A stretch of DNA of 59,175 nucleotides, filler included, from Candidatus Woesearchaeota archaeon (GTDB taxonomy: Archaea > Nanobdellota > Nanobdellia > Woesearchaeales > GCA-2685855): the NCBI GenBank assembly GCA_002685855.1. It is 4 parts of 4 records of this genome, joined end to end, with 100 filler letters (N's around TTAATTAATTAA, not from the genome) between each part and the next. Parts side by side here need not be neighbours in the genome. Positions count along the whole stretch, not along the records: positions 1 to 13,777 come from NYYS01000035.1; 3 more parts are not named here. One strand, 5' to 3'. The notes beneath the pieces were generated by a model that had not been told where the DNA came from, searched no databases, and saw nothing but the letters and a program-made list of their open reading frames with translations. This document shows positions 1,899 through 48,906 of this stretch, piece by piece. The translations under genes and the position numbers were made by a program. How positions within the stretch are numbered: the first letter of the stretch is position 1; every line of letters starts with the position of its first letter.

Positions 1899-1983
1899 AT
1901 TATGAAAACGATTTACATTACTTTTTATATACTTTTCCTCCAGGAACTGTGCCGGATACGAGAACATTCTTGAATAAAAAAAA

Positions 1984-2094
1984 TGAGCCCGGTGAGATTC
2001 GAACTCACGATCTACAGCTTAGAAGGCTGTCGCCCTCTCTGGTGCTCCCAGAGTTAGCATCTAAGCACGTATATCCAGACTAGGCTACGGGCCC
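1984..2094 (-). tRNA. tRNA-Arg(TCT) with a 36-nt D-loop intron (2037-2072)
   Basis: Acceptor GGGCCCG/CGGGCTC; anticodon arm ACAGC-CTTCTAA-GCTGT; T arm GTGAG-TTCGAAT-CTCAC. Relaxed BHB (CTGG:CCAG, bulges ATA and AGA). Spliced length 75 nt. Confidence 0.92.
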
Positions 2095-2544: not shown

Positions 2545-2624
2545 TCAAATCTGAGTTATTTTCTATATTGTAATTAAATGTGTGGGGAGGTAGTTATTTA
2601 AACACCCCCTTCCTCTCACACCCT

Positions 2625-2657
2625 ATGACAGGAGTTGATTATATTCATCATCAGTAG
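2625..2657 (+). promoter_or_regulatory. Putative hisS leader peptide MTGVDYIHHQ*
   Basis: TATTTAAA box at 2595-2602 and ATG at 2625. Tandem His codons CAT CAT are followed by CAG TAG, 60 nt upstream of hisS. Confidence 0.55.
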
Positions 2658-2717
2658 TTCTCGTTTACCTAGTCCCAACTCCACAAACCTTATAAATTCC
2701 CAAGAAAAGGTGAACCC

Positions 2718-3998
2718 ATGAACCTACAAACAGCAAAGGGAGTACAGGACATTCCCCCAGAAGAGGCAATCATCAGGCAACGCATCATCACCACAATCAG
2801 AGAGGCCTTTGAACGCTACGGCTATGCACCTCTGGAAACACCAACATTCGAACTCTTTGAAGTGCTCGCTTCAAAATATAGCGGAGGAGCAGAGATCCTC
2901 AAAGAAACTTTCCAATTCAACGACCAGGGAAAACGAAAACTGGCGCTTAGATATGATCTTACAGTTCCCTTCTCCCGCTTTGTTGGCATGAATCCCCAGC
3001 TAAAGATGCCCTTTAAACGGTATGAAATGGGAAGAGTATACAGAGATGGCCCAATAAAAAAAGGTAGAATGAGAGAGTTCTGGCAGTGCGATGCGGACGT
3101 TGTCGGAACACGAAGCATGGCAGCAGAAGCAGAACTCCTGCTCATGGCAGTAGACGTATTCGAAAAACTTAAGATCGATATTACTTTGAAAGTTAACAAC
3201 AGAAAACTCCTGAACGGCTTCGTAGCCTATGTTGGAGCAAAAAAAGATGCAACAAAGATCATCCTCTCCCTTGACAAACTCGCAAAACAAGGAAGAGCAG
3301 AAGTAAAAAAAGAACTCCTGGAAATCATCCCCGAAGAAAAAGCAGAAAAACTGCTTACACTCGTTCAAACAAAAGGAACGTTCATACAGATCAAAAAAGT
3401 ATTCAGCGTCCTTAACGAAGAGGCACAGGAAGGACTCAAAGAGCTCGAAGAACTCTTCTCATTAACACAAAACAAACGCATCATCTTCGATCCCGGCCTT
3501 GCACGCGGACTCGCCTACTACACCGGAACCGTGTTCGAAGCATTCTGCCCCCAAATGGGCAGCAGCCTCGGAGCAGGCGGGCGTTACGACAGAATGATCG
3601 CAGACTTTCTTGAAAGAAAAGAAGACGTTCCTACCGTCGGATTCTCATTCGGAATCGAACCCATAACAGTGGTAGTAGGAGAACGTGAAACAATCAAACG
3701 AAAAACACCCACCGATCTCTTTGTAATACCGATCGGCACAGCAAAAGAGGCATTTGCATTCACACAATCCCTCAGAGAGAAAGGAATCAAAGCAGACCTC
3801 GACCTTATAGGCAGAGGTATTAGCAAAAATCTCTCTTATGCCAACGGCCTTGCAATCCCCTATGTGGTTATTCTCGGGGAAACAGAACTTAAAGAGAAAA
3901 AGGTCAAAATAAAAAATATGGAATCAGGAAAAGAAGAGCTTGTCGACATGGACAAAGTTGCAAAAAAGATGCTTGCTCTCATAAAAAAAATTGACTAA
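2718..3998 (+). CDS. hisS: Histidyl-tRNA synthetase
   Basis: LALRYDLTVP, YRDGP..GRMREFWQCDAD, LARGLAYYTG, GAGGRYD, and a C-terminal anticodon-binding domain. Confidence 0.97.
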   Translation: MNLQTAKGVQDIPPEEAIIRQRIITTIREAFERYGYAPLETPTFELFEVLASKYSGGAEILKETFQFNDQGKRKLALRYDLTVPFSRFVGMNPQLKMPFKRYEMGRVYRDGPIKKGRMREFWQCDADVVGTRSMAAEAELLLMAVDVFEKLKIDITLKVNNRKLLNGFVAYVGAKKDATKIILSLDKLAKQGRAEVKKELLEIIPEEKAEKLLTLVQTKGTFIQIKKVFSVLNEEAQEGLKELEELFSLTQNKRIIFDPGLARGLAYYTGTVFEAFCPQMGSSLGAGGRYDRMIADFLERKEDVPTVGFSFGIEPITVVVGERETIKRKTPTDLFVIPIGTAKEAFAFTQSLREKGIKADLDLIGRGISKNLSYANGLAIPYVVILGETELKEKKVKIKNMESGKEELVDMDKVAKKMLALIKKID

Positions 3999-48756: not shown

Positions 48757-48858
48757 ACCAACCGCAAACCACAATCCTTTTTAAAACTAATCTTAAACAC
48801 CCCAACAAAAAATTAACCCAACCATAACCTTTTTAAACCATCCCCTCCCTATCCTCTC

Positions 48859-48906
48859 ATGTTCAATCCTCTCATCCAACGAATGTATTCTATCATTATT
48901 CAATAG
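48859..48906 (+). promoter_or_regulatory. Putative ileS leader peptide MFNPLIQRMYSIIIQ*
   Basis: TTTTAAA box at 48831-48837 and ATG at 48859. ATC ATT ATT is followed by CAA TAG, 15 nt before the ileS ATG. Confidence 0.62.

Follow-up and report, generated by a model that had tools for sequence, protein, structure and literature searches.

Here, we report that the histidyl-tRNA synthetase gene (hisS) of a Woesearchaeota archaeon is preceded by a short leader ORF, MTGVDYIHHQ*, which by sequence comparison is a real member of a conserved family of histidine leaders in the Nanoarchaeia. What is conserved in this family is a single His codon within a constant nucleotide context, not a pair of His codons. 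The leader very probably exerts histidine-responsive, translation-coupled control in one form or another; the form that we favour, at a probability of roughly 0.55, is that the uORF senses charged tRNA-His and controls transcriptional read-through into hisS on top of basal expression from a second promoter. The window, the whole stretch of 59,175 nucleotides that was analysed, joins contigs C35–C39 of an archaeal assembly of 953 kb that is 94% complete; coordinates refer to its plus strand unless otherwise stated.

The leader ORF and its two promoter-like boxes

The hisS gene (2718–3998) encodes 426 amino acids, matches TIGR00442 with 367 bits against a cut-off of 287 and carries the domains PF13393 and PF03129; in the profile search both hisS and ileS exceeded their NCBIfam cut-offs, and aCPSF1, likewise encoded in the assembly, exceeded its own. 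A Shine-Dalgarno-like (SD) AGGTGA lies at 2708–2713. The leader ORF occupies 2625–2657, so that its start precedes that of hisS by 93 nt, and ends in CAT CAT CAG TAG (2646–2657), in which His8 (2646–2648) is the codon conserved in the family, followed by His9 (2649–2651) and the stop at 2655–2657. A distal promoter-like box, P1 (2589–2604), has the BRE/TATA element TATTTAAA at 2595–2602, 22 nt before the uORF ATG, and a proximal one, P2 (2683–2698), has CTTATAAA at 2689–2696, 21 nt before the hisS ATG. The preliminary description of this DNA had placed both boxes, the ATG and the peptide at these same positions, and all were right on re-reading.

Promoters were scored with a matrix built from 198 of the genome's own, and across 516 of its genes the TATA-to-ATG gaps peak at 21–23 nt; most promoters here thus have leaderless spacing, and the leader RNA is predicted to start, leaderless, at about 2625. 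The P1 score of 8.6 (gap 22) is reached by 1.0% of 3126 random ATGs and stands at the 21st percentile of the training set. P2 scores higher, at 11.5 (gap 21), its TATA position is common to 87 of 133 hisS loci, and it lies inside the stretch kept by a relative matching 2624–2696. The earlier suggestion that hisS may have its own promoter is thereby upheld: the proximal promoter is real, and basal hisS expression is predicted to come from it. Since P2 outscores P1, the leader could be a minor input in this genome. A promoter and uORF pair is found at only 14 of 841 genes of this genome, five of them synthetase genes, and the uORFs of hisS, ileS and leuS each close with a run of cognate codons, followed by one further codon and TAG.

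The leader is not the tail of an upstream gene, as the upstream ORF stops at 2544. An antisense gene starting at the conserved CAT was also rejected, the corresponding frames ranging from 2 to 49 codons (10 in this genome). Between a tRNA-Arg gene (1983–2056, minus strand) and the leader lies a 124-aa ORF (2170–2544), with a TATA box at leaderless spacing and no Pfam match.

Neither a HisG match nor a tRNA-His gene was found in the assembly, and no tRNA separates the leader from hisS in this genome. Identical pieces of the locus are present in marine sequencing runs from three studies; no other GTDB genome of the source's genus or family was returned, and in a scan of metagenomes one contig was identical, while a further 27 loci reached 59% or less. 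In public runs two other organisms align over the leader alone, the letters being visible for the middle part of these matches, with the His codons outside it. One, found in two runs of a single study (X1, X3), has 62 of 73 letters identical over 2624–2696 (85%) between unalignable flanks, and the leader stop is unchanged. Its TATA box lies about 22 nt before the ATG in the unaligned 5′ flank, and its 3′ flank has 21 nt with GGTGA, at a distance from the leader equal to that here, before ATG AAA TTA, which is the hisS spacing. The other (X6) has 37 of 43 letters identical over 2625–2667.

A conserved family of single-codon His leaders

When 450 nt upstream of 159 distinct hisS loci were read with no two-His rule, a promoter-linked uORF was present at 28, and 26 of these 28 contain His, as compared with 1 of 5 such uORFs at 48 leuS loci and 3 of 12 at 53 ileS loci. 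A family motif, GRTTRYNTTCAY, which reads GATTATATTCAT at 2637–2648 in the window, occurs upstream of 27 of the 159 hisS loci against 1.55 expected from shuffles. Starting from the motif alone, 21 of 24 promoter-bearing hits have an in-frame ATG at leaderless spacing, the other 3 are second copies without an ATG, and none (0/24) is found only out of frame, with the His codon in frame at six start distances (21, 24, 30, 33, 48 and 60 nt after the ATG). These two figures, 26/28 and 21/24, are the unbiased ones, as the members collected over all loci include kin, which are not independent, and were in part selected by a pattern that demands CAY.

Over all loci the family comprises 59 distinct members with the consensus M-x-R-V-[DG]-[CY]-[ILVF]-H, to which the leader of the window aligns; TTCAT is invariant in 22 aligned rows. 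His is single in 50 of the 59 and stands at codon 8 in 42. The His codon changes synonymously only (47 CAT, 12 CAC), a count partly built in, as the search pattern for part of the set demands CAY. The preliminary description had proposed to look for the uORF and its His pair in hisS orthologues, and of these the uORF is conserved and the pair is not. A search for His pairs only, by the strict pattern TATA-ATG-His-His-x-TAG in 401 genomes, accordingly misses the family: among the matches listed (150 of 198) there were 12 in-frame hits, none before hisS, and in the 23 genomes with matches outside that list no such leader was seen at those hisS loci that were located. One member (L063, His at codon 17) comes from an unpublished genome, G182; the codon-17 position is found also in G091 and G030. 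The denominators also include the unpublished genomes G111, G120, G209, G273, G302 and G305.

The pattern of promoter, ATG and motif was found in 70 of 301 genomes of the order (reversed control 9), and a stricter pattern in 3 of 34 genomes from other orders of the class (control 0). Among 30 unselected loci from the order-wide pattern, 17 combined a promoter score of at least 8 with a short in-frame ORF, of which 16 lead to tRNA-His or hisS; the remaining 13 had a lower promoter score and no His link was seen. A further 36 stretches were fetched because they were family-like, so that the 66 in all are a selected set; 44 distinct loci pass among them, and in 41 the genes that follow include tRNA-His, hisS or a biosynthesis gene confirmed by Pfam (L069 being used for G189). 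The exceptions are two loci with look-alike genes that Pfam did not confirm (L414, L417) and one with no link (L374).

The leader is usually followed by tRNA-His and then hisS, or by a histidine-biosynthesis operon; hisS alone is a target as well. A tRNA-His gene lies within 700 nt downstream of 39 of the 59 leaders, domains of HisG, HisI, HisD, HisB or HisA type follow in 10 loci (36 proteins scanned with Pfam), hisS is up to 4 kb from the leader in some operons, and the leader adjoins hisS directly also in G197 and G214.

Several further features of these neighbourhoods were recorded. In 33 of the 159 hisS loci of the order, hisS is preceded at no more than 450 nt by a tRNA-His gene of the same orientation; it is called twice in tandem in L384 and L408, and is interrupted in L382, L383, L387 and L418, where ARAGORN calls Tyr. 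A gene for an aromatic amino acid lyase (HutH-like) is placed between tRNA-His and hisS in L407 and L408, and one is likewise suggested upstream of hisS in L064 and L081. Genes of SLOG cluster 4 (PF18306) occur within leader-headed histidine operons (L413, L414, L419). By sequence reading, the gene between leader and hisS in L371 and family f67 is small and looks like an AlaX-type editing domain, and in a divergent hisS group (L024, L025, L072, L298, L303, L304) a short ribbon-helix-helix-like segment enters or abuts the hisS frame.

An SD-like element before the His codon

The stretch GGAGTTGAT at 2631–2639 is at once an SD-like element, as seen in the position profile of the 59 leaders, and the 5′ arm of a possible stem. 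A gap of 4 nt separates the end of its GTTGR core from the codon that precedes His; the gap between a real GGTGA and its ATG is 4–5 nt in 21 of 24 hisS loci, with a mode of 4 in this genome. Duplexes with the anti-SD average −6.9 kcal/mol in the family (−9.5 in this leader), against −3.0 for coding controls and −9.5 for real SDs, and reach −5 kcal/mol or lower in 55 of 59 leaders compared with 17% of coding controls; the anti-SD used in these figures is the general archaeal motif, from which this organism's own 16S 3′ end, unassembled here, may differ. Within GAGTTGRTT the nucleotides vary less than the encoded residues, GTTGRTT and TTCA being near-invariant, and in the codons before His the third positions are almost fixed as U and the first and second vary, so that much of the selection acts on nucleotides. 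A ribosome stalled with the His codon in its A site could pair with the SD-like element, which would explain how one codon serves as a sensor. Alternatively, the same nucleotides could be only a stem arm or a protein site.

Stem, folds and the RNA after the stop

The segment GGAGTTG (2631–2637) is complementary to CAACTCC (2676–2682), and the stem would enclose the His codons and the stop and end 6 nt before the proximal TATA. Folded in silico, it pairs with a probability of 0.99 as long as the transcript falls short of the hisS start; beyond that point a crossing anti-SD helix displaces it. No other duplex of the stall footprint here is as good (−11.9 kcal/mol, with p 0.07 in comparison with shuffles and 0.036 in comparison with orthologue DNA). 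The 3′ arm core AACTC occurs downstream in 18 of 59 leaders, against 3.5 expected. In an alignment of nine rows, hand-chosen for likeness so that the test leans towards the stem, 75% of cells are paired as compared with 34–47% when the rows are slid, with one double change; even these nine rows gave no excess of covariation over shuffles. The arms did not pair better with their own downstream DNA than with that swapped from other members (Fisher p 0.21), RNAalifold gave no consensus fold for 22 members, and fold z-scores were about 0 for this region and −0.11 on average over the 59 members. The 7-bp stem of the preliminary description is plausible: its complementarity is exact and conserved in a subset, but covariation does not exceed shuffles, and the comparison of folds across orthologues that had been proposed as a check gave no common structure.

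A terminator scan found no hairpin with U tract, and no post-stop hairpin is present at this leader. The RNA that follows the stop has a U-rich segment (2655–2673) with the words TAGTT, GTTCT and CTAGT, which are enriched in the family (TAGTT in 33 of 59 leaders against 6.5 expected, CTAGT in 19 against 3.0) and may be a loading zone for a termination factor. The U fraction in the leaders is 0.31–0.42 against 0.22 in hisS. The U-rich leaders and the presence of aCPSF1 fit factor-dependent termination, yet no run of four U follows the stop here.

Leaders of ileS and leuS, and candidates at other synthetase genes

The preliminary description had drawn a parallel to ileS, and a leader was indeed found there, with TATA at 48830–48837 and the uORF MFNPLIQRMYSIIIQ* at 48859–48906; it is non-homologous to the His leader. 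A leuS leader with four Leu codons, MITLSDHRILLLLS*, lies on another contig (G000:C11:1328–1372) and has analogues at 3 of 46 other leuS loci. Such run-type leaders, defined by a TATA hexamer 20–26 nt before the ATG, 6–30 codons and a run of at least two within the last five, were found at 3 of 136 hisS, 4 of 47 leuS and 9 of 52 ileS loci, with this genome counted in each; the loci supplied were 153 (17 dropped as duplicate, short or lacking a start), 50 and 54, respectively. The terminal runs were cognate in 16 of 17 cases at these three genes. A second promoter (score ≥8) follows 9 of the 16 run-type leaders, and post-stop hairpins at p ≤0.05, common in Ile and Leu leaders, follow 6.

Unrelated His-run leaders precede hisS in L092, L144 and L340, that of L340 being the His-rich MTAAMYMESKEHHHSCTSHRQ*. 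The His-run leaders of G194 and G066 were absent in their family mates, namely the 6 others of the G194 family and the 17 readable among 18 other loci of the G066 family. A single origin of the run-type His leaders was rejected, since in a FastTree phylogeny of 115 sequences, judged by inspection, the four corresponding hisS proteins are scattered. Two records titled Methanosarcinales (L314, L340) carry a hisS of Woesearchaeota type, and the upstream region of L314 equals that of G066; the title looks wrong. In four ileS leaders (L184, L185, L212, L223) the stretch of Ile codons, ATTTCTATCAT, is complementary to a downstream segment resembling ATGATAGAAAT, which ends at an A/T-rich box, and the pairing encloses a hairpin. 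The Ile leaders of L192 and L198 lie 370–400 nt upstream.

In this genome no cognate leader is present at 12 synthetase genes (val, met, gly, pro, asn, arg, cys, tyr, glu, ser, ala and phe), in a survey that covered the synthetases without aspS and in which trpS was not found by motif or BLAST. Upstream of lysS (G000:C31, 16019, minus strand) there is a uORF, MMTGVTNFK*, that starts like the His leader and has GGGGTGA a few bases before TTT AAA TAG; its Lys codon and stop are enclosed by an 8-bp stem, but that codon overlaps with the probable TATA box of lysS, and the uORF's own promoter scores below 8. It is a possible, if doubtful, single-codon Lys leader. At thrS (G000:C62) a 22-codon ORF, 139–70 nt upstream with a promoter of 12.6, ends L-L-L-T-R-stop and is a doubtful single-codon Thr candidate, with its Thr codon at the position usual for such leaders but beside a Leu run.

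Proposed transcriptional read-through and its alternatives

The preliminary description had interpreted the leader as a His-tRNA-sensing element that allows read-through or induction, and the comparative data (26/28 uORFs with His, 21/24 motif hits in frame, linkage to his genes) support a His-sensing translated leader well; read-through or induction is also the reading that we prefer. In the mechanism that we favour, P1 would start the RNA at the uORF AUG. With ample His-tRNA the ribosome would finish and leave, freeing the G/U-rich arm and the U-rich segment, which allows the stem (2631–2637:2676–2682) to form; transcription would then stop short of hisS, with aCPSF1/FttA as the probable agent. 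When His-tRNA is scarce the ribosome would stay on His8/His9, possibly held by the SD-like element, and cover the U-rich RNA, so that the polymerase reads on into hisS. Archaeal termination involves U-rich RNA and aCPSF1/FttA (PMC13675443, PMC11616081, PMC8116511), and aCPSF1 binds U-rich RNA (PMC11616081), according to the accessible parts of these papers; the accessible part of PMC11616081 treats exclusion of FttA by the ribosome as an untested hypothesis.

Read-through is the most economical output because a tRNA gene is among the targets, as are operons with hisS up to 4 kb away, and because ileS and leuS of this genome lack a second promoter. Biosynthesis genes downstream in 10 loci fit induction on starvation, and a HutH-like gene after leader and tRNA in two loci misfits it unless that gene has its own promoter. 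A doubtful, more detailed version of this reading is a histidine "ribulon" of tRNA-His, hisS and his operons in the Nanoarchaeia, in which an SD-like element 4 nt before the P-site codon would clamp a ribosome whose A site contains the one sensing His codon, and the clamped ribosome would keep aCPSF1/FttA off the nascent RNA.

The same sensor might instead act through promoter interference, with polymerase from P1 pausing or ending on P2 and blocking it at ample histidine, and stalling clearing P2. This is unlikely, in spite of the stem's 3′ arm ending so close to the P2 TATA, the nine run-type leaders with a second promoter and a TATA-like box 26–43 nt after His in many family members, as about half of the His family lacks a second TATA-like box and so do 7 of the 16 run-type leaders. 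These seven include the ileS and leuS leaders of this genome, where read-through must therefore occur.

TnaC is an arrest peptide that senses a ligand in the ribosome. A similar sensing of free histidine or another ligand, in which the residues and not tRNA charging set the stall, could be read from the conserved R-V-[DG]-[CY]-[ILVF]-H with its mostly single His and from the two HutH-like genes. This is rather improbable: the variation is nucleotide-like, 8–10 residues are short for tunnel contacts, the Ile and Leu analogues are plain codon runs, and biosynthesis operons need induction at low histidine. Of similarly low probability is that the motif is a site for a histidine-responsive DNA- or RNA-binding protein with an incidental reading frame. 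The near-invariant GTTGRTT and TTCA speak for such a site, as do the untranslated second copies before tRNA-His genes (L097, L133, L136, L137, L146, L149), which we count against attenuation. The frame is, on the other hand, kept in 21 of 21 cases where an ATG is present, at all six distances, and the unrelated His-run leaders and the cognate ileS and leuS runs independently show a logic of translation.

Translational attenuation of the mycobacterial polycysteine type, where the stalled ribosome would free the ribosome-binding site of hisS, is also unlikely. A helix of 2663–2670 with 2708–2715 masks the hisS SD in the full-length fold, and the leaderless design is shared with the mycobacterial system (10.1101/834739, accessible part). 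Simulated stalling nevertheless shifts the accessibility of the hisS site from 0.44 to only 0.46–0.49, with a clear rise in few of 16 leaders, and the relative breaks the register of the helix, which was for both reasons rejected as a switch. The next gene is, moreover, often a tRNA (39 of the 59 leaders), which masking of a ribosome-binding site cannot control. Finally, a relic left after tRNA-His moved away, with hisS served by P2 only, would suit the missing tRNA and the modest P1 but is the least probable of all in view of a relative that, between diverged flanks, has kept the leader at 85% together with both TATA boxes, of the direct leader–hisS junctions elsewhere and of the second His codon.

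Relation to known systems and biological meaning

Leader peptides that sense amino acids are well known from bacterial textbook examples. The leader described here would, on the evidence of its sequence, work like leader-peptide attenuation, yet outside the classical family. Like hisL (RF00514) and the His attenuators predicted in Firmicutes (PMC9413887, accessible part), it is a short ORF with His codons near its end before a histidine gene, with stalling predicted to give read-through. It differs in its archaeal TATA, its predicted leaderless start and its inclusion of tRNA-His and hisS among the family targets, in having two His codons (one in most members) where the hisL type has a run of three or more, and in the absence of terminator and antiterminator hairpins from the terminator scan and fold comparison. 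No Rfam His_leader match was found in 2400–2900, where the one weak hit was unrelated (E 2.9). A T-box riboswitch was rejected, there being no Rfam match, only 93 nt to hisS, and a codon that lies in an open frame with an ATG.

The mycobacterial polycysteine ORFs are alike in their leaderless sensor, cognate codons beside the stop and one sensor at several loci, whereas there, in the accessible text of 10.1101/834739, a very stable helix masks the SD; here SD unmasking is unsupported in silico. The pheST and the predicted trpS and leuS attenuators of Streptomyces (PMC1262725, accessible part) likewise place a cognate leader before a synthetase gene, but have terminator and antiterminator hairpins and a U tract.

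In the tna operon a ribosome that stalls close to the stop covers the RNA on which a termination factor depends. The mechanism proposed here would have the same masking logic with aCPSF1/FttA as the factor; TnaC, by contrast, senses free Trp and induces catabolism. A Met-Trp mini-ORF before trpY of Methanothermobacter thermautotrophicus would be an archaeal uORF with a cognate codon, though one that encodes a dipeptide before a regulator gene; it was not found in the literature searched. Rho-dependent attenuation of the E. coli tna operon is named in PMC1262725, and FttA is a nuclease and not a helicase (PMC13675443), both according to the accessible parts of these papers. Our search, which covered titles and the starts of abstracts of mostly open papers, found no archaeal leader-peptide attenuator; the supplementary sORF tables of PMC11456600 may contain leader ORFs from archaea. 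None is described in the accessible parts of 10.1101/834739, PMC9413887, PMC1262725, PMC13675443, PMC11616081, PMC8116511, PMC6737238, PMC11456600 and PMC3403918.

If true, the histidine ribulon would mean that archaea, too, attenuate transcription by means of the ribosome, though by a design that differs from bacterial attenuators, and that a leader peptide controls a tRNA gene. The single-codon design suggests how one codon can suffice for a sensor, and the family provides a short, defined element for testing the regulatory use of archaeal transcription–translation coupling and of aCPSF1/FttA. As it occurs in roughly a sixth to a quarter of the Woesearchaeota genomes sampled, and in further orders of the class, it suggests that feedback control of tRNA charging persists in reduced DPANN genomes, the present one having no detectable hisG.
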